From the IMG/VR virus record IMGVR_UViG_3300028920_000694, positions 40,201-104,200 of that record: 64,000 nucleotides of DNA; one strand, written 5' to 3'. Each line of letters opens with the position of its first letter. Positions within the stretch are counted from its first letter, which is position 1. Of this stretch, positions 2 through 64,000 are shown piece by piece. The notes under the pieces were generated by a model. It saw only the letters and a list, made by a program, of their open reading frames with translations, did no database searches and was not told the DNA's origin. The DNA is from a virus. The translations under genes were made by a program, and so were the position numbers.

Positions 2-670
2 ATAATATATCCACTGATTGTGGATAGTATTGATTATGATACATCAATTCTTGGAGAATATGTAAATGTATCTGGAATTGAACCACCACCAGTCTTTACT
101 ATGGGAAAGTATAATGCACAGGACTATCTATTCCAGACTATGTATCCTAAACCATTCAAAATAGAGAGGATGCTTGACTTTGGAGCAGGATATGGAAGAC
201 AGATTAATCTATGGAGTCAACATCATAGAGATGACCTAACATATGTAGGAATGGATTCAGTGCCACAATCATACTGTCTTCAGAATCTATACTATAGATA
301 TGCAGATATGCCTATGTATGAATATATGGAGAAGAAGAGATTGAAGATAAAGAAGAAAGGTATCTATCATATACCTACATGGAGAACTGATTTACTTCCA
401 AGTAAGTATTTTGATATGGTGAGTGCAGTTCAAGTTATGCAAGAGATAAATGAAGAGCTAGTGAAACACATGTTAGATGAATTTAAGAGAGTTCTGAAGG
501 TAGGTGGAGAATTGTATATAAGAGACCATGGAATGGCATTTAAATATTCAGCACATAAATTAGATATAGAAGAAATACTTTGGGATATGGACTTCACACT
601 AGAGTATGAACCAGACTATGTAGATTATGAAGAGATACATGGTATACCTAGAATCTGGAGGAAGAATTAG
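2..670 (+). CDS. Class I SAM-dependent methyltransferase, probably a sugar O-methyltransferase (5'-truncated by the window edge)
   Basis: Motif I LDFGAGYGR, followed by DSVPQSYCLQNLYY and a post-II region VLKVGGELYI. The frame is open from position 2, so the GTG at 20 is not necessarily the start. First gene of a sugar cluster. Confidence 0.75.
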   Translation: MIYPLIVDSIDYDTSILGEYVNVSGIEPPPVFTMGKYNAQDYLFQTMYPKPFKIERMLDFGAGYGRQINLWSQHHRDDLTYVGMDSVPQSYCLQNLYYRYADMPMYEYMEKKRLKIKKKGIYHIPTWRTDLLPSKYFDMVSAVQVMQEINEELVKHMLDEFKRVLKVGGELYIRDHGMAFKYSAHKLDIEEILWDMDFTLEYEPDYVDYEEIHGIPRIWRKN

Positions 671-1539
671 TGAAACATATACTAGTAACTGGTGGATTAG
701 GATTCATAGGAAAGCATCTAGTGAAAAGACTAGAGAAAGAAGGACATAATATTCATATCATAGACATCAAGGGTGGTTCTAATCTATTAGATATAGATGA
801 GATAACCAATAAACATTATGATATCATCTATCATCTTGCAGCTAATGCAGATGTCAGAGGTGGAATAGATAACACAACGATAGATTTGGAGAATAATATC
901 AGAGCTACACATAGACTTCTAGAATATATGAGGATGCATAATTGTAAGAATCTAGTATTTACATCATCAGCTACAATCTATGGAGAAAGAGATGATTTCC
1001 CAATACCAGAAGATGCACCTGACTTGAGACCTATCTCACTCTATGGAGCAAGTAAACTATCTGCAGAACATCTGATAGAGGCATATTCACATATGTTTGG
1101 AATCAATGCAAATATCTTCAGATTTGGGAACATTGTTGGTGAAGGAAACACTCATGGAGTAATTAATGACTTTGTGAGGAAACTACAGAAGAATCCAAAG
1201 AAACTAGAGATTCTAGGAAATGGAAATCAGATTAAGCAGTATCTTCATGTGAATGATTGTATTAATGCATTGATGAATATATCTATAGAAGAAGGAGTTA
1301 ATATATATAATCTAGCACATGATGATACCATGCCAGTAAGTAGACTAGCATCTATAGTTATAGATGAGATGGAATTAGATGCAGAAATAGAATATACTGG
1401 TGGAGATAGAGGATGGATAGGAGATGTTCCAGTTACTATCATAGATAATTCTAAGATGAAGGAATGTGGTTGGAAACCAACTGTAAGTGTAGAAGATGGA
1501 ATAAGAAGAACTGTGAGGTGGCTAATTGATAATCAGTAG
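670..1539 (+). CDS. NAD-dependent nucleotide-sugar epimerase/dehydratase (extended SDR)
   Basis: GGLGFIG Rossmann motif, TSSATIYG, catalytic YGASK, FRFGNIVG. Confidence 0.95.
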   Translation: MKHILVTGGLGFIGKHLVKRLEKEGHNIHIIDIKGGSNLLDIDEITNKHYDIIYHLAANADVRGGIDNTTIDLENNIRATHRLLEYMRMHNCKNLVFTSSATIYGERDDFPIPEDAPDLRPISLYGASKLSAEHLIEAYSHMFGINANIFRFGNIVGEGNTHGVINDFVRKLQKNPKKLEILGNGNQIKQYLHVNDCINALMNISIEEGVNIYNLAHDDTMPVSRLASIVIDEMELDAEIEYTGGDRGWIGDVPVTIIDNSKMKECGWKPTVSVEDGIRRTVRWLIDNQ

Positions 1540-2485
1540 AACTCCATATAGAATATCATTTGCAGGTGGTCTATCTGACCTAGAAGCATATTATAAGTAT
1601 CAGGATGGACATGTAGTATCTACTACTATAGATAAATATCTCTACCTATTCGTGACTAAGAATCTAATAGGCAAGTATAGAGCAGTTTATAGAAATGTAG
1701 AAGAAGTGGATGAGATAGATGACATTAAGCATCCATTAGTAAGAGAATGTCTTAAGATGGCTAAGATAGATGAACCAGTAGAGATAATGTGTCTATCTGA
1801 TGCACCTGGAGGAACAGGTTTAGGTTCTTCATCTGCATTCACTGTAGGACTTCTTAATGCTTTATATAGATATAATGGAATCCAATGTAACAAAGCCAAA
1901 CTAGCAGAGGATGCATGTAAGATAGAAATAGATATACTAGGTGAGCCTATAGGAAAGCAGGATCAATATAACTGTGCTTTTGGTGGACTGAATCATTATG
2001 TATTTACTAAGAAGAGAATCAGAATCCATCCTATACTAGCAGATATAGAGACAATTAATAGATTACAAGACAATCTAATGTTATTCTATACAAACATTCA
2101 GAGAAAAGCATCTGATATTCTAAATAATCAGAAGAAGAATATGCATGATATAGTTCCAATAGTCAAAGATATGACTTGGATGGCTAGCTGTATATCTAGT
2201 GACTTACATCATAATACACTAGATAACATAGGTGCATATATAGGTGAAGAGTGGAATCTAAAGAAGAAGACTGGAAATGTATCTAATGAGATGATAGATG
2301 AGATAATAGATAGAACATATGATGCAGGAGCTACAGGAGCAAAGTTATGTGGAGCAGGTTCAGGTGGATTTCTGATGGTATATTGTGAACCAGCATATCA
2401 AGATGCAGTTAGAAAAAGACTATCTGATCTGACAGAGTTTCCATTTAGATTTGATGAACATGGGAGTAGGATAATACATGCCTGA
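1526..2485 (+). CDS. hddA: GHMP kinase, D-glycero-alpha-D-manno-heptose-7-phosphate kinase (HddA-like)
   Basis: N-terminus IISRTPYRISFAGG, GHMP motif PGGTGLGSSSA, IGKQDQY and GAKLCGAGSGGF, all typical of the HddA subfamily. Confidence 0.85.
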   Translation: MIISRTPYRISFAGGLSDLEAYYKYQDGHVVSTTIDKYLYLFVTKNLIGKYRAVYRNVEEVDEIDDIKHPLVRECLKMAKIDEPVEIMCLSDAPGGTGLGSSSAFTVGLLNALYRYNGIQCNKAKLAEDACKIEIDILGEPIGKQDQYNCAFGGLNHYVFTKKRIRIHPILADIETINRLQDNLMLFYTNIQRKASDILNNQKKNMHDIVPIVKDMTWMASCISSDLHHNTLDNIGAYIGEEWNLKKKTGNVSNEMIDEIIDRTYDAGATGAKLCGAGSGGFLMVYCEPAYQDAVRKRLSDLTEFPFRFDEHGSRIIHA

Positions 2486-3530
2486 AGTATCTATAATCAT
2501 ACCAACAAATAGAAGAAATAAAGTCATGATACCTAAGATAAGGAATATCCAGAGTGCACTTCTAAGGAACCATTTCAGTAGAACATTCACTAATGAATTC
2601 ATAGATTTGATTACCCAGAGAACATTTGATGTCAATCATTATCTAGAACTTACACTCAGCTCTCTATCATATCAAACATTCAAAGACTTTGAAGTTATTA
2701 TCTCACATAGATATCCAGAAGATGCTCTAGAGACAGTTAAGATGGAATGGGGATTTCCTATCAAGCTAGTAAAAGAGAAACCATCTATATGGCATGATTT
2801 AGGTGAGAAGTATCCTACACTCTGTAACAACATCAACACTGGAGTCATTCATTCTTCTGGAGAACTTCTCTGGAGACTAGATGACTTGACATTCTTTAAT
2901 AATAGAGCTTTAGAAGAATTGTGGAGTAACTGGAAGAATGGATACTATTCCACCAGTAGAGGATTCAGATGTATTGACTTTGAAGAGAAATGTCTTGGTA
3001 TGAAGGAGAGGTCAGTAAGAGTAGGACCTAATAAATATAACTGTTACTATAATGGATGGCTAGGTCAACTGAAGCCCCTGACTATGGAAGGTAATGAAAT
3101 TCCTAGCTGGATGATGTGGGGATTCTCTAGTACAATGTCTATAGATGATTTCCTTGAGGTTAATGGACAAGATGAGATATATGATGGAAGCATATCAGGT
3201 ACAGATATAGAAATCGCAATGAGGATAGCAAAGATAAATAAACAGAGGAGACTAGCTACACAGAACTTTGTATATGAGATAAATGATGTTCCATACAAGT
3301 ATATGGCCAGAGATGATGTTGCAATGAGAAGACTCTGGCAAGTGAATAATCTGACTGCTAATGATTGGAAGCCTACAGAAAAGCAGATGAAACTATATGA
3401 AAGGTGGCATAAAAAGAAACTAGGTGAATTAGATGAGTATTGGAATCAGTTCATGAATGTGCCTTATCTGGACATGAAAAAAGAGTATAAAGACAAGAAA
3501 TTGGGGAAAATAGTCTATGAAAGTGAATAA
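2478..3530 (+). CDS. Glycosyltransferase, GT-A fold (GT2-like)
   Basis: N-terminal VSIIIPT, LSSLSYQTFKDFEVII, SSGELLWRLDDL (DxD-like) and GQDEIYDG..GTDIEIAMR (GxxDED-like). Confidence 0.8.
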   Translation: MPEVSIIIPTNRRNKVMIPKIRNIQSALLRNHFSRTFTNEFIDLITQRTFDVNHYLELTLSSLSYQTFKDFEVIISHRYPEDALETVKMEWGFPIKLVKEKPSIWHDLGEKYPTLCNNINTGVIHSSGELLWRLDDLTFFNNRALEELWSNWKNGYYSTSRGFRCIDFEEKCLGMKERSVRVGPNKYNCYYNGWLGQLKPLTMEGNEIPSWMMWGFSSTMSIDDFLEVNGQDEIYDGSISGTDIEIAMRIAKINKQRRLATQNFVYEINDVPYKYMARDDVAMRRLWQVNNLTANDWKPTEKQMKLYERWHKKKLGELDEYWNQFMNVPYLDMKKEYKDKKLGKIVYESE

Positions 3531-3711
3531 TGTAGAATGTAGTCGAGGATATGCCTCAGAAATCGATTTAAAGGGGTCATACAGCCACGTAGAAGCAAAA
3601 ACTATTTTTACTAATGGTATTATACCTGTGGCATATCCAAATGCGTTAGCGTGGCTCTTTGGTGCCTTTAAATGGAAATTAGGGTTTTTTGATGAAAATG
3701 AACATAAATAA
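3517..3711 (+). CDS. Possible short ORF read through repeat copy A; may be non-coding
   Basis: The ATG overlaps the end of the GT gene and the ORF end overlaps the gmhA start, but nearly all of it is the 130-bp repeat and it has no recognisable motif. Confidence 0.2.
   Translation: MKVNNVECSRGYASEIDLKGSYSHVEAKTIFTNGIIPVAYPNALAWLFGAFKWKLGFFDENEHK
3541..3675 (-). repeat. Dispersed ~130-bp quasi-palindromic element, copy A
   Basis: The reverse complement reads CCATTTAAAGG..CAAAGAGC...ATACCATTAG...TGCTTCTACGTGGCT...CATATCCTCGACT and is colinear with copies B and C. Internal inverted arms are TTTAAAGG..AGCCACG and CGTGGCT..CCTTTAAA. Confidence 0.8.
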
Positions 3712-4216
3712 GTATTTAGATGAATTTAAGAGTGTGTTTGAAGATATAAAGAAGCAGTATAACAAGTTAGATGAGATAGTAGATATTATAAAGCAATCAG
3801 AGAAGATATACATAGCAGGTAATGGAGCATCTGCATTGATATCATCACATCTAGCCCTGCATCTGAGACAGTTAGGATATGATGCAATATCTCTAACAGA
3901 TAATGTAGGACTAGTGACTGCAGAAGCTAATGATGATGAATATAAAAATATATTTATGAACCAACTATATTCTACATCAGATAGAGGAGACATTCTAATC
4001 ATCTTCTCTGGTTCTGGTAATTCAGAGAATGTAGTGACTGGTGCAAAGTATATGATAGATATAGGAGAGAAGGTAATTGCATTTGTAGGAACAGATGGTG
4101 GAGAATTAAGTATGATGGAAGATGTAGAGTGTTTTCATGTGAATGGGGATATGCAGCACGCTGAAGATGCATTCTCAATTATATGTCACTTGCTTTTGAG
4201 GTGTTTAGATGAGTAA
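3689..4216 (+). CDS. gmhA: Phosphoheptose (sedoheptulose-7-phosphate) isomerase, SIS domain
   Basis: IYIAGNGASA, TAEAND, GDILIIFSGSGNSENV and GTDGG, as in GmhA. The C-terminal QE.H motif is diverged (QHAEDAF). Confidence 0.85.
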   Translation: MMKMNINKYLDEFKSVFEDIKKQYNKLDEIVDIIKQSEKIYIAGNGASALISSHLALHLRQLGYDAISLTDNVGLVTAEANDDEYKNIFMNQLYSTSDRGDILIIFSGSGNSENVVTGAKYMIDIGEKVIAFVGTDGGELSMMEDVECFHVNGDMQHAEDAFSIICHLLLRCLDE

Positions 4217-4427
4217 ACTTGAATTTAAATGTCCATTTTGTGATGCAGATATGGAAATTATAAGCCAGAATATTAGTATACCATTGAATTATTTATTTGG
4301 TACAAAAAACAAATTAACAGAAGAGTGGATTTGTATGAATGAAGAATGTCAATGTAGACTTGAGATAAATGCAGAATCTGTATCAATGATACCAATAGAA
4401 AGACAATGGAGACCAACAAATGAGTAA
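4209..4427 (+). CDS. Small zinc-ribbon protein
   Basis: CPFC ... CMNEEC; overlaps both neighbouring genes. Confidence 0.6.
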   Translation: MSKLEFKCPFCDADMEIISQNISIPLNYLFGTKNKLTEEWICMNEECQCRLEINAESVSMIPIERQWRPTNE

Positions 4428-5244
4428 ACCAAGAATTGGCATTTGTGGATTCGGAGTTGTGGGTAGAGCTATCCATGCAGGATTCTATACTAAAGCAAAG
4501 TTCAGGATATATGATATTAATCCAGATGTATCAGTTAATGACCTAGAAGATGTATGCATAGATAGTGAATTCATATTCATATGTGTTCCTACTCCTATGA
4601 AAGAGAATGGAGAGGCAGACACTTCTATAGTAGAAGAGACTGTTCAGAGATGTTTAGATTACATCAACCACACAGATACTATTCTAATAATCAAATCAAC
4701 TATTCCACCAGAGACTACAAAGATGCTTCAGGAGAGGCATCCAGATATACATATAGTCTTCTCACCAGAGTTCTTAACTGCTAGGTGTGCTAGACTAGAC
4801 TTCATTAATAATGCTAGAATCATTCTGGGTGGAGATATAGGAGATACAAAAAGAGTAGAGAGTCTCTTCAGATTGAGATTTCCACATACACCAATCATTC
4901 ACACAGATCCAACAACTGCAGAGATTGTAAAGTATGCAGCTAACTGTTTCTTTACCACAAAACTATCTTACTTCAATGAGATTTATCAGGTATGCCAGAA
5001 ATTAGGAGTTGATTATGAAGATGTGAAGAAGATGGTTCTACTTGATGGTAGGATAGGTAATTCACATGTTGATGTACCTGGATTTGATGGCCATCTAGGA
5101 TGGGGACAAGCATGTTTCACCAAAGACCATAATGCATTAATAAAAAAAGAAGAAGAACTAGGAATCGAACCTAGTGTTCTAAAAGGAGTATGGAAGAAGA
5201 ACGAAGAAGTTAGAGGAAAAAGATATTGGAAAAAAGGACTTTAA
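4420..5244 (+). CDS. UDP-glucose/GDP-mannose dehydrogenase family protein (short form without the C-terminal domain)
   Basis: GFGVVG, FICVPTP, IKSTIPP, SPEFL, EIVKYAANCF, GWGQACFTKD (GxGGxCxPKD-like). Confidence 0.9.
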   Translation: MSKPRIGICGFGVVGRAIHAGFYTKAKFRIYDINPDVSVNDLEDVCIDSEFIFICVPTPMKENGEADTSIVEETVQRCLDYINHTDTILIIKSTIPPETTKMLQERHPDIHIVFSPEFLTARCARLDFINNARIILGGDIGDTKRVESLFRLRFPHTPIIHTDPTTAEIVKYAANCFFTTKLSYFNEIYQVCQKLGVDYEDVKKMVLLDGRIGNSHVDVPGFDGHLGWGQACFTKDHNALIKKEEELGIEPSVLKGVWKKNEEVRGKRYWKKGL

Positions 5245-7869
5245 TTAAACTTCTGCTCTCCATGAAAATGATTGTGCATCTGGAGAAGAATGATACACAG
5301 TGATGTTTGTGGCATCCACTGTGAATGAATACATGATTGGATTTGCACCTGATGGAGATAGATTAACATAAGATGGTTTGCTTGGGCACCCATGTGCTAT
5401 AGTTCCTGCATCTGAAACATTAGCCCATCCTCTATATAAACTTTGTAAGGAACCTTTGATTGTGCCTCCTGATATTGTAGTTCCAGATATACCATCTGCA
5501 TCAATACCTGCAGCAGTCAACACACCTGTTGTTGTATCATCTGCATTATCTTTTAGATAGTCAGAAGCACCCACTAAGTTTGTATTGTTACCAGATACCC
5601 AATCTGCATAGATACCTGTCTGTGAGGAATACAGACCAGCTTTTATATTACCACCAGAGATTGCTTGAGTAGATATGCATTGTGAAGAGAAATTACCTTG
5701 GAAGTATGCATCTCCTTTAAATAGTGCATCACCTGCATCTATATAAAGTCCATAGTTATTTGTAGCACCACCAGCATAAGCATATATTCCTATGTTTGTG
5801 GTATTAGCCCCTACAGCAGTACCATTAAATCCATATAAAGTATCTAATCCAGCTTTATTAGCATGCATTTTAATAGCTTGGATAAAGTCGGTATTATCAT
5901 CTGGAGTTAATTGAACATTAACAAACCCCCTTAAAGTTCCTGTCATAGAATTATGCCCAAATGATGCTCCACCTGAATGTTGCATATGGAATGGTGAAGA
6001 AGGTGTGAACTTTGCCATATTCACCCCTAGAGAATTAGTTATTATAGAACCTCCAGAGATAGTTTGAGAAGAAAGAAAAGTCATATTATGAATACCCTTA
6101 CTATTCCAATCCTTATCAGCATTTATAGTCAAATCAGAAAGGTTAGATACTCCATCTCCCCCACCACCTATCATAGTGTTCCAACCACCACTATTAGCAC
6201 TACAAATATATAAATTTGATAATGAAGTAGTTCCAGATAACCAAAGAACTCCAGCTCTCTGTGATGGTTCATCTGTGCTTGGAATTATTTCAATCATAGA
6301 ACCAGAAAATCTGTGAGTAGTTATTCCTCTTTTTGTTAATATAAGTCTTCCACCACTATCATTATAGTTAAGTTGCATTGCTCCACTACCTTCCATATAT
6401 ACAAATGGACTATATGTTTGAGCAATATCATTGCAGTAGATATACATATCATCAGTGACTAGACTACCACCTTTTAAGACTGTATTATCATCTGATTTCT
6501 GTATACTAAATAATGCAGTATTTCCGCTTTCAATAGTAAGTGGTTGATTTCCATGAAGTCTTATATCTATATTTCCAGCATCAAATAAAGCAATAGCAGG
6601 CTGTGCATCTATATCATTAGCTAATAACTTAAGATTCTTTCCATCAATACCACCTTCAATAATAGATGTTGTTCCATCATATGTGAAATCAAATATCTGA
6701 GTAGAACCACTTTTCATAGTAATTCTACTAGGGCTATTAGTTATTAAATCAGTTAATCTTATTGATCCACCTGAAATTGATGCGGAAGAAATACCTGCAG
6801 CATTATAAATAGTCTTTGAATTCCAATCCTTATCAGCGTCTATAGTTAAATCTGATAAATTAGAAGCACCAGCACCAACACTTGGTCCATTATATACAGA
6901 ACAAGAAATAGTATGTGCTTGTAATTGACTGGATATAGATATCTTATTACCAGATAAAAGAATGTTACTACTAGCTTTTATACGGATATCACCTGGATGA
7001 GTAGCATGATCTTCACCATAAAAAGAAATATATGATTGTTCAGTTGTATAATGTCTAAATCTAGCTTCTTGGTCACTCCAACCAATCATCAAGTCTGTTC
7101 TTTTAGATGCAGTAGATGGATTAAAGATTAATATAGGTGTTCCATCTCTCCATATTCTAAATGTATGTGGAGTCTCACTACCTAGACCGACTCCAACAGT
7201 TGATGAATCGCCTACTGAGATATATTGAGTATTACTTGTATTACCCTTTATGACTATCTTCTCATCATGACTACCCCCGTATAGATTACTAGTTGTTCTA
7301 TTGTGAGTAAACTGAAATGTCTCACTACCAGTCTTATAGAAATACACATCATCATTTGTATCTAAGATTATATCTCCAGCACCATTTAATTTAATGTAAG
7401 GATATGTATCTGAACTATTCGCATTAATTATCATATCATCATTAGCATCATCACCACCGAATAAACGGCTATCATCTCCATCCACATCAAATTGGAATAT
7501 CTTAGATCCCTGTTCCTCTATATCAAAATCTCCACCAGTAGCCAAATCAATTCCAACATCACTGGCACCTTGTATTTGAATAAATGGGTAGGTATCTTTA
7601 TCATTAGCCTTAATAATCATAATAGAATCATTCTCATCTGTTCCATATATTGTAGTACCCTGCGCTTCAAGAGCAACCTTTAGCATTTGATCGCCATCAT
7701 CTTTCATTATTATCTTACTACTAGCATCTAGTATTATATCATCTGGGGCATCCATATTATACCAATCAGAACCAGTATTGTTATGTCTAATTTCTGGAAC
7801 CATTGTATTCCAATTACTATAAGTGATTGTATTGCCAGATTCCATTGAATCGTACCAATTAGTTGCCAT
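5245..7869 (-). CDS. Tail fibre / receptor-binding protein (874 aa, modular)
   Basis: Last gene of the tail-tip block. Rich in Gly/Ser/Asp, with repeated SSxxISGG and SNLSDLTI.ADKDWNSK modules. A ~110-aa module and the C-terminal domain are shared with 24439..27147. Confidence 0.7.
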   Translation of the reverse strand: MATNWYDSMESGNTITYSNWNTMVPEIRHNNTGSDWYNMDAPDDIILDASSKIIMKDDGDQMLKVALEAQGTTIYGTDENDSIMIIKANDKDTYPFIQIQGASDVGIDLATGGDFDIEEQGSKIFQFDVDGDDSRLFGGDDANDDMIINANSSDTYPYIKLNGAGDIILDTNDDVYFYKTGSETFQFTHNRTTSNLYGGSHDEKIVIKGNTSNTQYISVGDSSTVGVGLGSETPHTFRIWRDGTPILIFNPSTASKRTDLMIGWSDQEARFRHYTTEQSYISFYGEDHATHPGDIRIKASSNILLSGNKISISSQLQAHTISCSVYNGPSVGAGASNLSDLTIDADKDWNSKTIYNAAGISSASISGGSIRLTDLITNSPSRITMKSGSTQIFDFTYDGTTSIIEGGIDGKNLKLLANDIDAQPAIALFDAGNIDIRLHGNQPLTIESGNTALFSIQKSDDNTVLKGGSLVTDDMYIYCNDIAQTYSPFVYMEGSGAMQLNYNDSGGRLILTKRGITTHRFSGSMIEIIPSTDEPSQRAGVLWLSGTTSLSNLYICSANSGGWNTMIGGGGDGVSNLSDLTINADKDWNSKGIHNMTFLSSQTISGGSIITNSLGVNMAKFTPSSPFHMQHSGGASFGHNSMTGTLRGFVNVQLTPDDNTDFIQAIKMHANKAGLDTLYGFNGTAVGANTTNIGIYAYAGGATNNYGLYIDAGDALFKGDAYFQGNFSSQCISTQAISGGNIKAGLYSSQTGIYADWVSGNNTNLVGASDYLKDNADDTTTGVLTAAGIDADGISGTTISGGTIKGSLQSLYRGWANVSDAGTIAHGCPSKPSYVNLSPSGANPIMYSFTVDATNITVYHSSPDAQSFSWRAEV

Positions 7870-7885
7870 ATTTATCTACCTCTCA

Positions 7886-8410
7886 TTATAAATCTCCACT
7901 TCCACTAACCATTGCTTCTATCTTACATCCTATCCATCCTTCTGCTGAATTTGGAATTGGATGAAGAACTACATTCTTCACAAAAGCAATCGTTTCTTTT
8001 CTCATGTTCCTTAATGTGCTTGCTCCCATATCATTAGATGATGGTGTAGGCAAGAATTTGATAGTGTTCTCTGCACTCCAAGTAGTATCATACATATGTC
8101 TTCTTCCAAGTATTTTAAACAGTTCACCAACTGCACCTGGAATGATATTATCCATTAGAGTATCCACATCTGATTTTTTCATCCATGTTTCTATTATAAC
8201 AGAGTAATCTTGAACATCCCATCTGCTACACTTGACATCTAAGAAATCACTTGTTCCCATATTTCCATAATAGATAGCCAAGTCATTATCATATTTGAAT
8301 GGTGGAGAAGGTGGAAGAGCACATGGACCAAAGCAGAATCCAAAATCATCATCAAAATAATAAGGAAATGTTCTATGAGATGCCTGAGGATGAGTATCAA
8401 ATGCAGACAT
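7886..8410 (-). CDS. Tail-tip protein, paralog 3 of a tandem triplet (possibly distal-tail-like)
   Basis: Shares CSRWD..Y..I.ETW...GAVGELFKILGR...YDTTWS.ENTI with the two preceding genes. Confidence 0.55.
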   Translation of the reverse strand: MSAFDTHPQASHRTFPYYFDDDFGFCFGPCALPPSPPFKYDNDLAIYYGNMGTSDFLDVKCSRWDVQDYSVIIETWMKKSDVDTLMDNIIPGAVGELFKILGRRHMYDTTWSAENTIKFLPTPSSNDMGASTLRNMRKETIAFVKNVVLHPIPNSAEGWIGCKIEAMVSGSGDL

Positions 8411-10273: not shown

Positions 10274-12727
10274 CTATCCACCATATACCTTCTTCTCTAA
10301 ATCAGAGAGTTTCTTCATTATATCAAAATTCTGTTTTCCATAGTTAATCACAGTAACAAATCCTTCTTCATCAGAGATTCTTTGTGTGTAGCTCACTATA
10401 TCAAATATATCATGAATTCCAAAGTTAGTTAGATTAGATGAGAATCTGTAATCAGTCTCTATATCAGTTCTTCCATTTATTGTAATCACTCCTTTCTTTT
10501 TAGGTTTAATGTTACTTCCAGATGTTTCTATTCTGGCTCTTTCATCTGCCATCTCTTGTGTAACTATACTATCATCATATATCTTTCTTAATTGAACTCC
10601 ATATGAATTAATACTATTATCATCAGTTCTAGTTGCAGTGATTTCATGCTCATACCATCCAAGTTTAAATGCTAAATCACCTGATGGACATGCATTATTA
10701 TCCGAATAACCTAACCATGAACTACCTGACTTCAGAAGTATCTGTCCACTTGCATAATTTCTTTGATTACTTGCATAATACAACTCCCACTTTTTAGGAT
10801 TAGCATCATTTGCCCCACTAATAACTAGCCAATAATTTGCTCCAACATTCAGATTCTTTAATTTAGGAGAATCATAACTCTGCCACTCACACCATCCAGA
10901 TGGATATGGTAAATCAGATGGAATAAAAGATATGTCATTACTCCATGGTATTGGAGTTCCTGCAGGCATACCAGCTGTATATGTAGAATCTTTTGTTGAT
11001 ACAGTCACATTTTCAATGTATGGTGGATCAGATGCATCAAATGTAGTTGAATTCAGAGATGAGAATATATATTTAATTGTGACATTGGAACCTTCATCAC
11101 CTAAATCATTCTCTATTCCATTAGTTAATCCTGACCACCATCCTAATCCAAGACTACCAGATAATAAAATGTGTTGTCCAGAATAAGTTTGTGCTGATAT
11201 AGTTATGTATTGTGCTCTTTGAGTAAATGTTGTTGTTTTTATATTTCCAGTTCTATCATAGTTCTTACCATAAACAAAATAACTAGTAGGTTGATATCTT
11301 CTAGCACTATAAGAATCTTTAGTCCAAGTAGTTCCATCAGCACTGGTGTATATAGCAAAATCAGTATCACTTGTTGTATTTGGCCTAAATTCCCATGTTC
11401 CATCAGATGCTATTGGTTGATGTAATGCCACAAAGAATTGTTGTCCTGATTTAACTAATGCTCTCTGTGACCATGAAATATCAAAATGTAAATGTTGATA
11501 ATATGCACTCATAGTTGTTGATGCAGATGCAAATGCAGCAGATATATCTTTATCACATCCACTAATAAGATAACACCATACTGTCTTAGGTAATGCATAA
11601 CTGTCATTATGAACTACATATGCTTCCACTCTAGTTACTCTTGCATCAAATGAGAATGGTTTCCATATATCACTAGAACCTCCACCTGACACTTGCCATC
11701 CTATATAATAATTTGCTGTTGAATCATTTTGTGGTGCTCCACCAGCACCAGTCTGTCCTAATTTTTTAGATGAAGACTCTGTTGTAGTTAGGAATGAATC
11801 ACTTCCACCTGTAAATATGTCTGCATTGTCCTTAGTGGATGTATTTAAATATGTGTAATCTTCAAATTCATCTGTATAAACATGAGAATCTGCATCTGGA
11901 AAAATACTAAATATTAAAGTATCTGGCTCATCATCATCTTCTGTTCTATCCATGTAGAATTTAACAGCTGATAGAATATCATCTTCGGCACAAATTCTCT
12001 GTGCAATCACTGCATTTGAAGTCAATGCAAATGAATGATTAAGATTAGGTTGGGATGTTATTGTAGAATATCCTGTTCCACCAACAACTAAAACCTTATT
12101 AGTTATATCCTCATCAGCTTCCTCTAATGGATCCATCTTAAAAATATCTGATTCAGAGATAGTGAAATCATAGCTATCTCCTCTAAATTCAGGTTGATAA
12201 TAATGCATTTGTCCACTATTATCTATATAGAATTTAAATCCATCAATCTTAGTCAAATCAATAAGTGCATCACCAACTATTGTATTAGAGAAATCAATTG
12301 AGTCAGTCATTGTTGTTCCACTATTGTTCCAAATGTGTGACCCAGAGATTCCAGGACAATAATCAGCTATAAGAGAAGATGCTATATAACAGGTATTTCC
12401 AGAATATTCAGCAGAAGCACTAGTATGATATCTCCATAAATCATATGTTCTACCAACTACCTGATATATATGTGTCTTCTTTCCCTGAACAATTTCTTGT
12501 TGTATCCTAGATATATATCCATCAAATTCTAAATCATCATTTATAAAAAGAAGAACTTTATCCCCAATCAATCTATTTGTGGTGACATCAAATGCATTTA
12601 TCACTCCATTCTGAAAATATTCATTATCTGAATTAGTTATCTCAATGAGAGATATATTTCCACCAGCAGAATAATGATTTGCATCTGCTGAACCTGAACC
12701 CAAATAGATATCGTATGAGATAGTCAT
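10274..12727 (-). CDS. Tail hub / Tal-like baseplate protein (817 aa)
   Basis: Directly after the tape measure. FDGYISRI, FKFYIDNSGQMHYY, ITNKVLVVGG and SINSYGVQLRKIYDDSI..QEMA..RA match the phage tail-hub pattern, with a large inserted beta-rich region. Confidence 0.7.
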   Translation of the reverse strand: MTISYDIYLGSGSADANHYSAGGNISLIEITNSDNEYFQNGVINAFDVTTNRLIGDKVLLFINDDLEFDGYISRIQQEIVQGKKTHIYQVVGRTYDLWRYHTSASAEYSGNTCYIASSLIADYCPGISGSHIWNNSGTTMTDSIDFSNTIVGDALIDLTKIDGFKFYIDNSGQMHYYQPEFRGDSYDFTISESDIFKMDPLEEADEDITNKVLVVGGTGYSTITSQPNLNHSFALTSNAVIAQRICAEDDILSAVKFYMDRTEDDDEPDTLIFSIFPDADSHVYTDEFEDYTYLNTSTKDNADIFTGGSDSFLTTTESSSKKLGQTGAGGAPQNDSTANYYIGWQVSGGGSSDIWKPFSFDARVTRVEAYVVHNDSYALPKTVWCYLISGCDKDISAAFASASTTMSAYYQHLHFDISWSQRALVKSGQQFFVALHQPIASDGTWEFRPNTTSDTDFAIYTSADGTTWTKDSYSARRYQPTSYFVYGKNYDRTGNIKTTTFTQRAQYITISAQTYSGQHILLSGSLGLGWWSGLTNGIENDLGDEGSNVTIKYIFSSLNSTTFDASDPPYIENVTVSTKDSTYTAGMPAGTPIPWSNDISFIPSDLPYPSGWCEWQSYDSPKLKNLNVGANYWLVISGANDANPKKWELYYASNQRNYASGQILLKSGSSWLGYSDNNACPSGDLAFKLGWYEHEITATRTDDNSINSYGVQLRKIYDDSIVTQEMADERARIETSGSNIKPKKKGVITINGRTDIETDYRFSSNLTNFGIHDIFDIVSYTQRISDEEGFVTVINYGKQNFDIMKKLSDLEKKVYGG

Positions 12728-12729
12728 AA

Positions 12730-15700
12730 TTATCTAGTATTCCGATACCTAAACTTTAATTGATTTGTAAATGCACCAACATCCTGAATTCCATGAACAT
12801 TTATAGGTCCATACATATTATAATTCTCACTCATTGTATCTCCAGAATATGTCACATTTCTATTATAGGATGTTCCACCGAACACTCCACCTTTCTGCAT
12901 TCCAAGCAGATTAGAATAATGTGTAGAGAGTAAATATTTCATGATATTCTCACCATATTTACGATTAGTTCCCTCTAATGGAACAAGTGCCTCTGCTCCT
13001 TTTTCACCAAACACTCCAGCAGTTGGAGAATTAAATATTCCACCTCTTTCTCCAAATACTAGATTTCTAGCAACATTTCCAAATTCATCAAACATTGCTC
13101 CTGGATTTCTTATGGTATTCATCACAATCTCAAATGCAGTTCCTGTTGAAGTATTGATATTATTCATTAGATTAAATATATTCTGTAATTCATTCTTTAA
13201 ATCTATTACCTTGAGATTTAATTTATCAACATCGGATTGAGTATATCCGATTACTCTATCTACAGCCAACCATGCATCTTCTAATTCATAAGTGATGGTA
13301 GTACCTTCATCTGTAGCCTGTGCCATATCATTAGCTTTATCTTTTATCTTAGTAACTGTTGTAGCAACATCATTAGAAGCAATACCTATATCCATATAGT
13401 GTTCTGCAGTATCCATTGCCACATCATTGTATTCCTTCTGTTCTTTAGTTGCAGCATCTATATATTCTTGTAATTCTGCCTCTGTTATGTCACCCCTAGC
13501 ATATGCTGCCCTAGCCTTAGCTAAATCACCTTCTGCTTCTTTCCATTCTTTATACTGTTCAATTATATCTTCAGTGAGAAGTGCTTGTTCAGCTAACCCT
13601 TCAAATAATTCATCATCCAGTTTCTTTTTATCTTCTGCTATCTTATATTTCTCTAATTCAATCTTAAGTAGTTTATCTTCTAATTCATAGACATCCAACA
13701 TTGCCTCTGCTTTATATTTCTCTTTATTAGTGACTATATCCAATACCTTAGCATATTCTGACATTGCTGAATTCAATTCACTCTGAACTTCTAGTAATTC
13801 ACCCCTTCTATTTATTATATCAGTGACCTGTTCCAGAATTGCTAATTCATTCTCATTTAATTTTTCAGATAGAGAATTATATGTAGCAGTAGCAACTCCC
13901 AGTTCTTCTCTTCTAATTCTCAATTCATCAGTTACATCAGATAAATCCTGAGTTATTCTATTAGCTTGATTTAATAATAAATTATATTCCTCTTCTCTAT
14001 CAGGCCCAAGTCTATTCATTTCTTCTCTGGTGTCAATCAATCTCTGATTCAGATTCGTTTGTTTTCCTGATAATCTATTAATGTCTTTATTAATGTTATA
14101 TAGATTTGTATATGCATCAACTGCATCTCCAACTTCTGGACTCAAATCATGCATCAATTTAAGAATGTCTGATGATACACTTAATACATCACTTTCACTA
14201 TCAGCATATTTCCTTGTAGCATCACCCAAATCTATAAGTAAATCATTATATTCTTCATTTCCCTTTTTACCTTCTGCAGTTAATTCATTTAATCTATTCT
14301 GAATCCTGACTACCCTTGATAATCCATCTAACCAATCAGGTATAGCTTTATTTGAATATCTTTGTATTACAGTCATTCCATCTTCACCAGTTTTTGTTAA
14401 TTTCTCCCATGCTTCATAACTTAATGTCAAACTCTCTTGAACACCTTTAATCTTATCTATCATACCAAGTGCACTATCAATCATTGATGCAATTGAACCA
14501 ATAAATGGAATAGCTTTCACCATATCTTTTATTGTCCCAAAGAAATCAAAATCACCTTCACCACTAATAATCCCTTGGAGTGATTTTACTGATTCAATTA
14601 ATTTCCATAATGCACCAGTTAATTCTTCACCAATAGCTGCACCTAATTCCTGTGCATCACCAGCTAATTGTTTGAATTTGCCTGACATTGTATCCATCTG
14701 TTTCTCAGCAATAAATTCAGTGATTCCAGACATTTCCTTAGTGATAAGGACATAATCTTCTATTTCATCAACTGCACTCACTAGAGTAGCTGCAGCAGCA
14801 GCAGTTCTTGCTCTAAACATCTGTGAAGCATCAGCCACACTAAATTGAGCATTCTTTAATTTTCTAAGTATGTCTACTATACTATTAACTGTTGGATCTA
14901 TATCAGATAGAGTTAATCCTAATGCAGCAAGTGCTCTCTGTCCCTTATCTGTTGGAGTCAGAAGTTTAGTAAATATCATATTTAGACGTTGACCTGCTTG
15001 TGCACCCTCATAACCTCTATCAGCAAGCAATGTCAATGTAGCTCCTATTTCTCTAAAGTCTTGATTCAATTCACCTGCTATCTGTCCAACATACTGGAAT
15101 GCATTAGCCATCTTTTCTGCAGTCATAAATGAATTAGTAATCAAAGCAGTGAATGTATCTACAACCATACCAGTATCATCAAGTTCAAGTCTAAATTGTT
15201 TTAGAACTGTAATTACATATTTAACTGCTTCTTCTAGATTTGTTTGTGTAGCAGTAGCATATTGTAAAATAGGAAGTAATTCTTTAGTAGATGATATAAC
15301 TGGATCAATTCCAGCACTGGCAACTGTATACATTGCCTTAGCTACTTCTGTCATAGTGAATATGGTCTTACTAGCAAGTTCTCTAGAAAGTTTACTTATT
15401 GCATTAACTGCTTTATCAAAGCTATGACCTAAATATCCTGAAACAGCAGCAGCATTCACTACTGCACTCTCAAATTCCTTAAATATCTCTATAGAATTCT
15501 CTAGTCCTTGCCTTATAGCCATCACCATCTGAACACCTATAGAGAATGAAATGTAGTGGACAATCTTCAACATGAACTTCTGCCAGCTAAGCATATACTT
15601 CAATTGCTGTGCAAAGCTCTGTTGCATACCTTTGGTAGATTTATTTACTGTCTTGTGAATTGCAGTCATTGACTTGTTCATCTCAGCCTTGACTCGATTC

Positions 15701-60991: not shown

Positions 60992-62053
60992 ATGTGGATA
61001 GAGGAACTCTTCTATGACTCGATGGGAACAGCCAGAACCAGAATCCTTAGCGATTCAGGCAAGGAATACATCACCAACATCAGAAAGGATTGGATATCTT
61101 GGTGTTCCTGTCCTAGTTGGATATACAACAAACTCCCCTGCAAGCACATAAAGTTCCTGTATTCAAAATTGGAGAAAGAAAAAATGGTTGATAAATCAGA
61201 TAAATTAGTTAGGATTCCAACTGAGAGTAAGATAATTGATGATATGATTGGAGGAGGATTCCCCCAGAAGTTAATCACTGCTATCTTTGCTCCACCTGCA
61301 ACAGGAAAGAGTTGGTTAGCCTATCAGGCAGGTGTGAGTAACATTAAGACTACAGGTCAGGAGACTCTACTCATAGATACAGAAGGAATCACTAGAGAGG
61401 ATTTAGATAACATCCTCACAAAACTATCTAAGAGATATGATGCAGATGCTAAGACAGTGAAGAAGAAGTTCAAGATGATAAAGACATATGATGATCCTAA
61501 TGCTATGTCGATTCAGAAGCTACTCATGATGTTCGGATTCTTTGTGAAGCTAGAGTTAAGTGAGAAAGGTAAATATAAAGTAACATTCCAGCCATATGAC
61601 CAGACACTTAAGGTGAATGAGTTAGAGAACATCTCTATGATTATCATAGACTCTCTAACTAAACCTATCAAGGACTCTATTGGAAGTGAGACAGCAAACC
61701 TACCTGCGAGAGCTCAGATAGTAGAGAGAATGTTCGGGAAGCTCTATCAGATAGCAGAGTTATATAACATTTCAGTGATTGTGAATCATCATGCATCTGT
61801 TCCACCACCAGTGGGGTATGTTAAAGCACCTTATGCATATGGGGGTAATCCGATCTACTATAACTCTAAGTATATTCTAGAACTCTTTGACTCTACTAAA
61901 GCAGAGAGAGATATCAAGTGTGTGGAGAACAAGAAGAAGACATGGGACCTTGAAGCCAGAAGAATCAGATTGGTTAGAAGACCAGATGAACAACCCACTG
62001 GAGAGAAGGTTCCTATCAGATTAAAGAAAGATATTGGATTCGTGGATGAATGA
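60992..62053 (+). CDS. SWIM zinc finger fused to a RecA/RadB-like ATPase
   Basis: CSCPSWIYNKLPCKH (SWIM CxC-xn-CxH), then IPTESKIIDDMIGGG, Walker A APPATGKS, LIDTEG, Walker B IIIDS, PYAYGGNPIYYNSK. Confidence 0.85.
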   Translation: MWIEELFYDSMGTARTRILSDSGKEYITNIRKDWISWCSCPSWIYNKLPCKHIKFLYSKLEKEKMVDKSDKLVRIPTESKIIDDMIGGGFPQKLITAIFAPPATGKSWLAYQAGVSNIKTTGQETLLIDTEGITREDLDNILTKLSKRYDADAKTVKKKFKMIKTYDDPNAMSIQKLLMMFGFFVKLELSEKGKYKVTFQPYDQTLKVNELENISMIIIDSLTKPIKDSIGSETANLPARAQIVERMFGKLYQIAELYNISVIVNHHASVPPPVGYVKAPYAYGGNPIYYNSKYILELFDSTKAERDIKCVENKKKTWDLEARRIRLVRRPDEQPTGEKVPIRLKKDIGFVDE

Positions 62054-62337
62054 GAACAGATAAGTATTTGTGGGATAAAGTAGTTATGAATATCTACAGG
62101 CAAATGTTCAAGGAAGCAGAGCCTTCAGCAGACTTTGATGAATTGATTGAAATCGGTGAAACAAAGCAGGATAATTTCTTTATGAATTACTATCTTCATC
62201 AAGATAGACAACAGGAAATTATAGATGAATGGTGCAAGAAATATAGATGCAGTAAATTGGAGAAACAGAAGATAAGTGTAGAAGTGAATTTAGGATGTGC
62301 ACCAAATACTGTTAGGAGAGAAGATAATGAAACCTAA
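62050..62337 (+). CDS. Hypothetical protein
   Basis: Translationally coupled ORF. Confidence 0.55.
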   Translation: MRTDKYLWDKVVMNIYRQMFKEAEPSADFDELIEIGETKQDNFFMNYYLHQDRQQEIIDEWCKKYRCSKLEKQKISVEVNLGCAPNTVRREDNET

Positions 62338-62506
62338 ACCTATGCCACATTTTGATGAGATACACATAGAATTCTATGATGTGGATGAAATGAATCTTTG
62401 GCTGGATGATGCTAAAGAAGGATTGATAGCAGAATTACAAGAAGGATGTTTGGATGAAGAATCTAAAGAGTATATGAGGAAGACAGTAGAGAAGTGGTTA
62501 TCTTAG
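62327..62506 (+). CDS. Small hypothetical protein
   Basis: Start inferred at MKPKP after a GGAG SD; the stop abuts the eS17 ATG. Confidence 0.45.
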   Translation: MKPKPMPHFDEIHIEFYDVDEMNLWLDDAKEGLIAELQEGCLDEESKEYMRKTVEKWLS

Positions 62507-62788
62507 ATGGCAGTTAGGCAGTTCTATATCAAAAGAATATGCAATGAAATCATGAAGAAGTTTCCTGAAATGGCAACAGAAGACTTTGAATTGAACAAGC
62601 AATTAGTTAATGAAATTACAGATGTTCAATCTAAGAAGATAAGAAATAGAATAGCAGGTATGTTGGTCTGCTACAAAAAGAATGAGAATAAGGTGTTTAT
62701 CCCACCTAAGACTGGAAAGCCTCGAAAGAAGAAGGGCTGGAAAAAGAAGGAGAAGAATCGTTTAAGAAGAAGGAGAAGAAATAAATGA
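62507..62788 (+). CDS. rps17e: Ribosomal protein eS17 (S17e) homolog with a basic C-terminal extension
   Basis: VRQFYIKRIC.EI...F....T.DFE.NK..V.EITDV.SKKIRNRIAG is colinear with archaeal S17e (IR...VKR.A.E.......FT.DF..NK..V......SK..RN.IAGY). Confidence 0.88.
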   Translation: MAVRQFYIKRICNEIMKKFPEMATEDFELNKQLVNEITDVQSKKIRNRIAGMLVCYKKNENKVFIPPKTGKPRKKKGWKKKEKNRLRRRRRNK

Positions 62789-63012
62789 AGAGAGAGGCTG
62801 AAGAGAATGGATATGGTAAATATCGGGTGCTTAATGTAGGCAAGAGAAAGAAACCAACTACTATTAAATACTATGTCACGTGTGGAGAGTGTGGAGAGAT
62901 GGTATCATTCACCAGTTCACCAACCATGAGAGAAGAGTTCATGAAGAACACGTATATGCCTGTCTGTCCTCATTGTGGATGCATAATCAGCAAAAAAGAG
63001 AGGAATCGCTGA
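62785..63012 (+). CDS. Zinc-ribbon protein
   Basis: CGEC ... CPHC. Confidence 0.6.
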   Translation: MKREAEENGYGKYRVLNVGKRKKPTTIKYYVTCGECGEMVSFTSSPTMREEFMKNTYMPVCPHCGCIISKKERNR

Positions 63013-63151: not shown

Positions 63152-63361
63152 ATGAAGATTGGAGATAAAATGAAGGTTCTAGGCTTTGATTGTGGAGCCA
63201 GAGCATACCATAAATTCAATGTGATGGGCATCAGAATCGGAAGCATTCTAGTTCTAGAGGCAGTTCAGCCTCATGGTCCATATACATTTAGAATGAAAGG
63301 AATGAAGTTAACAATAGGTAGAGGTTTGCTTGAGAAATTAAGGTATGAGGTGATTGAATGA
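63152..63361 (+). CDS. feoA: FeoA-like SH3-fold protein
   Basis: MKIGD..KV......A.....VMGIRIGS.L.L....P.GP.......KLTIGRG, the FeoA consensus. Confidence 0.8.
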   Translation: MKIGDKMKVLGFDCGARAYHKFNVMGIRIGSILVLEAVQPHGPYTFRMKGMKLTIGRGLLEKLRYEVIE

Positions 63362-64000
63362 TTATCATAGACGATAGAAAGGAAACAGATACATATGAAG
63401 GTCTCAAGAAGAGAGGCATTCTAGATGCAGAGGTTCAAAGAATAGAGGTTGCAGATGTGCTTCTGGATGATGGTGTTGCAGTAGAGAGAAAGGGACATGA
63501 CTTGTTTGGATCTCTAACTACTGGAAGAATCTGGGAACAGTTGAATGGACTTAATGAATATGAGCATCCAATCCTCTGCATAGTTAATGAGAACATCTGG
63601 AGAGATATGTATTACATCAGAAGCAATTGGATACATAAGTCCTATCAAGGATTCCTAACTACTCTGGCACTGAGATATCCAAAGCTAAAGGTGTTTCAGT
63701 TCGGGTGCATGGAAGACTATCTTGATTTCATTGTTGCACTGGATAAGAAAATACATAAGGAAGGTAAATCTACAAGACCAACACCGATTCATCGAAAGAC
63801 TAAGAAGATTCAGGTGAGAATGGAAGACTGTCTAGCTATGGCAGATGGGATTTCTATAGGCAAGGCAAAGATTCCACTTAAGAAATACAACACTGTATAT
63901 GATGTAGCTAGCCAACCACTTAAGGAGTTAGAGAAGATGGATGGCTATGGTAAGAAATTAGCAAAGAATCTATATGATTTATTGCATGGTCAATATAAGG
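63358..64000 (+). CDS. ERCC4/XPF (Hef-like) structure-specific nuclease with an HhH2 domain (3'-truncated)
   Basis: IIIDDRKE, VAD..L...VAVERK, GRIWEQL, then GISIGKAK and DGYGKKLAK HhH motifs; frame open to the window end. Confidence 0.9.
   Translation, partial: MIIIDDRKETDTYEGLKKRGILDAEVQRIEVADVLLDDGVAVERKGHDLFGSLTTGRIWEQLNGLNEYEHPILCIVNENIWRDMYYIRSNWIHKSYQGFLTTLALRYPKLKVFQFGCMEDYLDFIVALDKKIHKEGKSTRPTPIHRKTKKIQVRMEDCLAMADGISIGKAKIPLKKYNTVYDVASQPLKELEKMDGYGKKLAKNLYDLLHGQYK

Follow-up and report, generated by a model that had tools for sequence, protein, structure and literature searches.

Virus-encoded ribosomal proteins are known mainly from bacteriophages, and one survey of them describes viruses as carrying ribosomal proteins of the exchangeable kind and gives experimental proof of ribosome incorporation for the two most common phage examples (Mizuno et al., 2019; PMC6375957). 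In archaeal viruses, according to a 2023 paper, L21e was the sole ribosomal protein on record until that paper added bL19 from the Bathyarchaeia virus Kunpengvirus (PMC10541130), and a 2026 survey of archaeal proviruses lists S6e, L15, L15e and L30 (PMC13573593). Neither of these two papers mentions eS17, and S17 goes unmentioned in PMC6375957. We describe here an eS17 gene with a strongly basic C-terminal tail, located on the plus strand at 62507..62788 of a 64,000-nucleotide stretch of viral DNA (hereafter the window) that comprises bases 40201-104200 of the 115,333-base IMG/VR virus record IMGVR_UViG_3300028920_000694. A first-pass annotation, made from the letters of the window, had stated that no viral eS17 was known to it. 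Our searches agree: a search of 50,697 GenBank records of phages and archaeal viruses yielded no eS17 homologue, and queries pairing eS17 or S17e with virus terms returned nothing relevant in the searchable full-text literature. Within the limits of the literature searched, a viral eS17 appears to be undescribed.

The gene has an ATG start and 93 codons plus a stop, and its product exceeds the cut-offs of two family models. Residues 3-56 match the Pfam family Ribosomal_S17e (PF00833) with an E-value of 4.7e-10 and 39.9 bits, against a gathering score of 22.8, and residues 1-61 align to positions 2-62 of the 67 in the NCBIfam archaeal S17e equivalog NF002242 at 75 bits, narrowly over the cut-off of 72; both models were matched by all 13 of the viral family members tested. 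The top matches among solved structures are the eS17 chains of Pyrococcus and Thermococcus small subunits (6sw9_S, E 1.8e-13). An AlphaFold model made from 13 relatives, with a mean predicted local distance difference test (pLDDT) score of 85.8, resolves an eS17 core at residues 1-60 (62507..62686, plus strand) with three predicted helices (5-18, 27-37 and 43-60; pLDDT about 90). In Foldseek, the best matches to this model are archaeal 30S eS17 chains, with template modelling scores by target of 0.79-0.94 and root-mean-square deviations (rmsd) of 0.9-2.7 Å over 56-63 columns. The residues that are invariant in cells are kept in the viral proteins (K9, D26, F27, N30, K31, R46, N47, R48, A50 and G51), except for Y52, which is invariant in 41 of 41 cellular eS17 sequences but is something other than Tyr in eight of 24 viral ones, and Met in the window protein. 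The window protein is a genuine virus-encoded homologue of the archaeal small-subunit protein eS17. With its cellular counterparts, as seen in chain S of the P. abyssi 30S initiation complex (PDB 6SW9/7ZHG) and in Saccharolobus (9FHL), it shares the family, the three-helix fold and the DFxxNK and RNRIAG motifs; it departs from them in being encoded by a virus, in an identity of no more than 56% to the cellular proteins found, in the replacement of Y52, and in a conserved basic extension that is 20-35 residues long across the viral set.

In the window protein this extension occupies 33 residues (61-93), of which 18 are Lys or Arg and one is Asp or Glu, with 16 of the basic residues falling among the last 23; it carries a net charge of +17 and brings the isoelectric point of the whole protein to 10.7. 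The full S17e core followed by a Lys/Arg-rich tail that the first-pass annotation had described is thus what the family models, the predicted fold and the residue counts return. The extension has two parts. A linker (residues 61-77; 62687..62737, plus strand; pLDDT about 73) holds a hydrophobic-Pro-Pro-Lys motif at 63-68 that is conserved among the viruses, with P66, P67 and G70 invariant in alignments of the closest relatives, and it is followed by a polybasic C-terminal segment (residues 78-93; 62738..62785, plus strand), most of which is predicted by AlphaFold to form a helix (78-92; pLDDT 80-90). The segment after residue 60 has a net charge of +5 to +19 in 23 of the 24 viral sequences, whereas in the 41 cellular eS17 compared it is either absent or ranges in charge from +3 to strongly acidic. 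Positions 53-60 and the linker are conserved more strongly in the viral than in the cellular set, and the consensus KKNE-x-R-I-I-I-P-P-K, which spans the end of helix 3 and the linker, is far more conserved in viruses than the same columns are in cells. We take this to mean that the extension is a constrained module, and not low-complexity sequence that is drifting.

Tails of other kinds occur in cells. Thermoplasmatota eS17 end at about 63 residues, and those of Thorarchaeota and Jordarchaeum bear acidic tails. Some Thermoplasmatota metagenome-assembled genomes (L043, L053, L057, L059 and others; P0193-P0227) also encode eS17 with acidic, Ala/Glu-rich tails that end in Ala-Ala-Ala. Tblastn matches of cellular eS17 that seemed to run into the tail were rejected as read-through of stop codons, the proteins themselves ending at about 63-68 residues. 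A polybasic tail is not exclusive to viruses: one cellular eS17 of 89 residues (L105 8001-8270; P0279/P0115 cluster) finishes in a run of Arg and Lys, and it lies on a 144-kb contig with eRF1, Rpb5, a class I tRNA synthetase and malic enzyme as neighbours. This protein has only 38% core identity to the window protein, has no Pro-Pro-Lys linker and does not belong to the group in which the viral sequences lie. Its lineage was not found among 301 Thermoproteota genomes, where the best identity was 57%, and the Atlas label (mostly Nanobdellota) on a cluster of similar size is an unconfirmed lead only. Its existence shows that a polybasic tail is compatible with being a cell's only eS17. The C-terminus of eS17 is prone to lineage-specific extensions and evidently tolerates them on a working ribosome.

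The window comes from a metagenome-assembled record that is linear and, by CheckV, 68% complete, and such a source invites the explanation that the gene is a piece of host DNA, the product of a chimeric assembly, or a passenger captured recently and without a role. We regard this as hardly credible, and it is already contradicted by several lines of evidence. The gene is coupled at both ends to viral neighbours, as the first-pass annotation had claimed: an upstream open reading frame (ORF) of 69 codons without a Pfam family (62297..62506, plus strand) has a TAG stop that directly abuts the eS17 ATG (TAGATG), and the ATG of a downstream ORF for a 75-residue zinc-ribbon protein (62785..63012, plus strand) overlaps the eS17 TGA (ATGA). 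Its guanine-plus-cytosine (GC) fraction, 0.344, equals that of the window (0.341). The absence of other ribosomal genes nearby, also asserted at first pass, holds for the neighbouring ORFs, which by Pfam comprise a SWIM-Rad51 ATPase, two small ORFs without a family match, the zinc ribbon and an ERCC4 nuclease. Further, more than eight independent contigs, drawn from different samples and sequencing centres, share this neighbourhood; identity to the closest cellular protein, which is tailless, is only 56%; and divergence inside the viral clade is deep and has proceeded under purifying selection. For practical purposes, the recurrence across many samples and centres excludes misassembly and host contamination, so that the misassembled host fragment raised at first pass as a possible undoing of the viral assignment was not what we found.

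The recurrent neighbourhood is a block in which a SWIM-RadA gene is followed by one or a few small ORFs, by eS17 and usually by an ERCC4/XPF-type nuclease, often with a family B DNA polymerase beyond. In the window, the gene for a RadA/Rad51-type ATPase with a fused SWIM zinc finger lies at 60992..62053 (plus strand; Pfam) and is the upstream neighbour of eS17 in all the related viral contigs, and the recurrent downstream neighbour, a short ERCC4/XPF-type nuclease of 216 residues with a helix-hairpin-helix tail, lies at 63358..64000 (plus strand) and runs 8 nucleotides beyond the window end. The block with eS17 was seen in L002 (22.7 kb), L003 (29 kb), L005, L103 and an 18-kb Joint Genome Institute contig, the last with no evident downstream nuclease. 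The RadA/Rad51-type ATPase stands ahead of eS17 at 3097-4143 in L002, 85-1131 in L005, 11-1060 in L101 and 8257-9303 in L103, with the N-terminal SWIM fusion detected by Pfam in the window and L005, and the flanks of three short eS17 contigs are homologous to RadA or MazG-like genes of these viruses. Relatives in IMG/VR were reached via the large terminase (TerL) and a second eS17 alignment; pattern scans of IMG/VR gave no match, whether they used the closest eS17 alignment or the RadA protein, and neither did a genome-contig scan with a single eS17 protein. Five IMG/VR records have a TerL 45-48% identical to that of the window record, and two of them, of 155 and 138 kb (87% complete), carry eS17 directly after SWIM-RadA; it was not seen in the other three, which are fragments of 28-54 kb. 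Another two records in IMG/VR (116 and 145 kb) also carry it. The carriers are at least five large IMG/VR records, the window's included, and several metagenome contigs. The viral nature of the window record is plain from its hallmark genes (large terminase, portal, prohead protease, HK97-type capsid protein and tape-measure protein), and its TerL has only about 25% identity to that of any GenBank phage. The window DNA itself is present in two marine-sediment runs from two studies.

As to the origin of the gene, when 1.84 billion representative proteins were searched exhaustively with HMMER, 263 matches were returned with tail-bearing relatives on top, and close homologues in large protein collections are of equal length and have a tail of similar kind. 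The best clearly cellular match is a tailless 66-residue Thermoplasmata eS17, 56% identical and set among housekeeping genes. When a viral profile was used for the search, Asgard proteins (Thor-, Baldr-, Jord- and Promethearchaeota) led the named matches, and the TTDFE-x-NK and AGYLV motifs are common to Asgard and viral eS17. These nearest cellular proteins, from Thermoplasmata and Asgard, are at most 56% identical and have either no tail or an acidic one; they need not represent the host's own copy. In a tree of 64 core columns, the 24 viral sequences make up one side of a branch with moderate support (77/90) that is present in 76% of bootstrap trees, and a clade of Thermoplasmatota plus Halobacteria (96/87) leaves them out. 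Approximately unbiased tests rejected neither a grouping of the viruses with Asgard nor one with Thermoplasmatota (p 0.34 and 0.30), and a larger eS17 tree was poorly resolved. A search with ERCC4 found virus-like proteins only. The window TerL was not found in 401 Thermoplasmatota genomes, a result that says little because a lytic virus is not expected there. It appears that eS17 was acquired once, in the ancestry of a marine-sediment clade of large, tailed archaeal viruses, and a single ancient capture is the simplest reading.

Since that presumed capture, the viral clade has, to judge from its patterns of substitution, kept eS17 under purifying selection. Against a 71%-identical relative, nonsynonymous divergence (dN) is 0.19 in core and tail alike and synonymous divergence (dS) is saturated, at 2.2 or more where it could be computed; dN/dS for this pair is well below 0.1-0.2, which is an upper bound only, as dS is saturated here and in nearly all pairs. 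The phylogeny and dN/dS check proposed at first pass thus yields a supported viral branch together with a dN of 0.19 set against saturated synonymous change. Column entropies of the viral and cellular sets are correlated (r = 0.71), and mutual identity among the viral proteins is 35-70%, with the cell-invariant residues kept apart from Tyr52. Continued binding to the same ribosomal RNA (rRNA) site would predict just such conservation of basic and polar surface residues across divergent viral eS17.

We suggest that the viral protein takes the place of host eS17 on the ribosome and that its basic arm adds contacts to rRNA or messenger RNA (mRNA) near the Shine-Dalgarno chamber, a reading towards which we lean, if cautiously. 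The first-pass annotation had placed eS17 near the mRNA exit, and published structures do locate it on the side of the small subunit where mRNA leaves; an additional domain of uS2 is found there in bacteria, and the C-terminal extension of eukaryotic eS17 reaches the exit channel and touches mRNA (PMC9932298, PMC7005279). Yeast eS17 joins the small subunit in the cytoplasm as one of its last proteins and counts only two proteins as partners (PMC9932298); its late joining and few partners fit the rule of exchangeable viral ribosomal proteins as stated in PMC6375957. In the sequence of events that we envisage, viral eS17 would be made during infection and would then occupy the eS17 site on the head of the host 30S subunit, a site that is surface-exposed and would, as in yeast, be filled late in assembly. 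The Pro-Pro-Lys linker and the polybasic helix could then make additional contacts, either with 16S rRNA or with mRNA close to the exit channel, at the Shine-Dalgarno duplex, and these contacts may adjust initiation or the stability of the ribosome to the virus's advantage. Shine-Dalgarno-like motifs are enriched upstream of this virus's genes, which suggests that the Shine-Dalgarno chamber matters for viral mRNAs. The homology, the fold, the viral setting, the clade-wide recurrence and the virus-specific conservation of the tail are observed; ribosome incorporation, the tail contacts and any selectivity for viral mRNA we infer, as we do the replacement of host eS17 and the preference for viral or non-AUG mRNAs that were suggested at first pass.

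Several observations weigh against this proposal. The gene always sits in a DNA replication and recombination block (RadA, ERCC4, PolB), and not among translation genes; no homology between the tail and the extension of eukaryotic eS17 is detectable, the Pfam match ending at position 57 of the 122 in the model; a polybasic tail binds any nucleic acid; and the substitution of Y52 means that one constraint has loosened. Some of these points can be assembled into a different explanation, in which the protein was exapted off the ribosome as a nucleic-acid binder, be it a DNA or RNA chaperone, a genome-condensing protein or an accessory to RadA/ERCC4 recombination. The constant position of eS17 between the SWIM-RadA and ERCC4 genes, the extreme basicity of the protein and the loss of an otherwise invariant tyrosine in part of the viral clade would all be at home there. 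However, viral early and middle gene order often reflects timing and not function, no DNA-binding family matches the window protein in family scans, and the retention of nearly all cell-invariant residues in proteins with such low mutual identity is hard to explain unless the rRNA site is still the ligand. We consider an off-ribosome role possible, though on the unlikely side.

The retention of the rRNA-binding residues would be equally expected of a decoy or inhibitor that sits at the eS17 site or on pre-16S rRNA and whose tail blocks assembly, the binding of hibernation factors or the loading of host mRNA, with host translation shut off as the outcome. A bulky basic segment near the mRNA exit side would suit such a function, but the virus itself needs working ribosomes and would be harmed by an inhibitor that does not discriminate, and for this explanation our expectation is low.

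The comparison with eukaryotes deserves a qualification of its own. The viral tail arises from the same end of the same core as the eukaryotic eS17 extension and could reach a similar place, but it is much shorter and far more basic, and the resemblance is one of position only. Foldseek alignments to eukaryotic eS17 chains at 78-88 columns have rmsd values of 10.7-16.9 Å, with 12 Å or more for those spanning the eukaryotic extension, and the extensions do not superpose; the viral and the eukaryotic extension are analogous and not homologous. A bolder extension of our proposal would have the viruses independently building an equivalent of the eukaryotic extension, with a polybasic arm in the exit/Shine-Dalgarno chamber and specialised ribosomes that favour viral leaders, perhaps including those of genes with ATA or ATT starts. 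We offer this tentatively and think it doubtful. Unusual starts bear on eS17 itself in two relatives. In the 155-kb relative, the eS17 homologue (L101 1474-1767; G006:C1, about 36.65-36.95 kb) has no ATG, GTG or TTG ahead of its conserved N-terminus, and its start is likely an ATA that lies about 9 nucleotides past a GGAGGA and overlaps the TAG stop of an upstream zinc-ribbon ORF; in L102, ATT may serve as the eS17 start.

Set beside the known viral ribosomal proteins, this gene has clear points of contact and of departure. As with bS21, bL12 and others in phages (PMC6375957), a single gene for a ribosomal protein that is peripheral and plausibly exchangeable is carried by a virus, with replacement of the host copy as the proposed outcome. 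Unlike the phage proteins, it encodes a protein specific to archaea and eukaryotes, in an archaeal virus, is conserved clade-wide and has a virus-specific segment appended. It resembles L21e and bL19 of archaeal viruses, and S6e, L15, L15e and L30 of proviruses, in that an archaeal virus carries one host-type ribosomal protein, and it differs from them in that the protein belongs to the small-subunit head at the mRNA exit side, comes from another virus lineage and bears a conserved tail.

Some further features of these genomes may be recorded. Within the last codons of the eS17 tail (62768-62788) sit a Shine-Dalgarno-like GAAGGAG and the ATG of the zinc-ribbon gene, so that the sequence coding for the tail doubles as the initiation region of that gene. 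The zinc-ribbon protein (62785-63012) gives a weak match to the C-terminal end of the model for the phage terminase gpA ATPase domain (E 3.5e-6, barely over the cut-off), probably due merely to a shared zinc ribbon. Transfer RNA and Rfam scans of the 64-kb window produced no match. Beside the tail genes, a run of sugar-modification genes (2-5244) encodes a methyltransferase, an NAD-dependent epimerase/dehydratase, a GHMP kinase and a SIS-domain isomerase, and also a UDP-glucose/GDP-mannose dehydrogenase that is without part of its N-terminal domain. Among the related contigs, L002 has a gene for a Ro60/TROVE protein that includes a vWA domain (6373-7896; Pfam E 1e-43) and L003 has one for a proteasome-type subunit (12532-13404; E 3e-9), both of them cargo that is unusual in viruses of prokaryotes. 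In L002, an eRF1_1 label precomputed for a neighbouring gene was not reproduced, and PF03463 was not found in three virus records.

What emerges is a small-subunit protein specific to archaea and eukaryotes that has been retained throughout a clade of large archaeal viruses and furnished with a conserved appendage of the viruses' own. Its gene is a handy marker for this virus clade, and through it the possible remodelling of an archaeal ribosome by a virus can be put to a concrete test. It also amounts to a natural experiment on the function of C-terminal extensions of eS17, and as such bears on how the eukaryotic extension arose.
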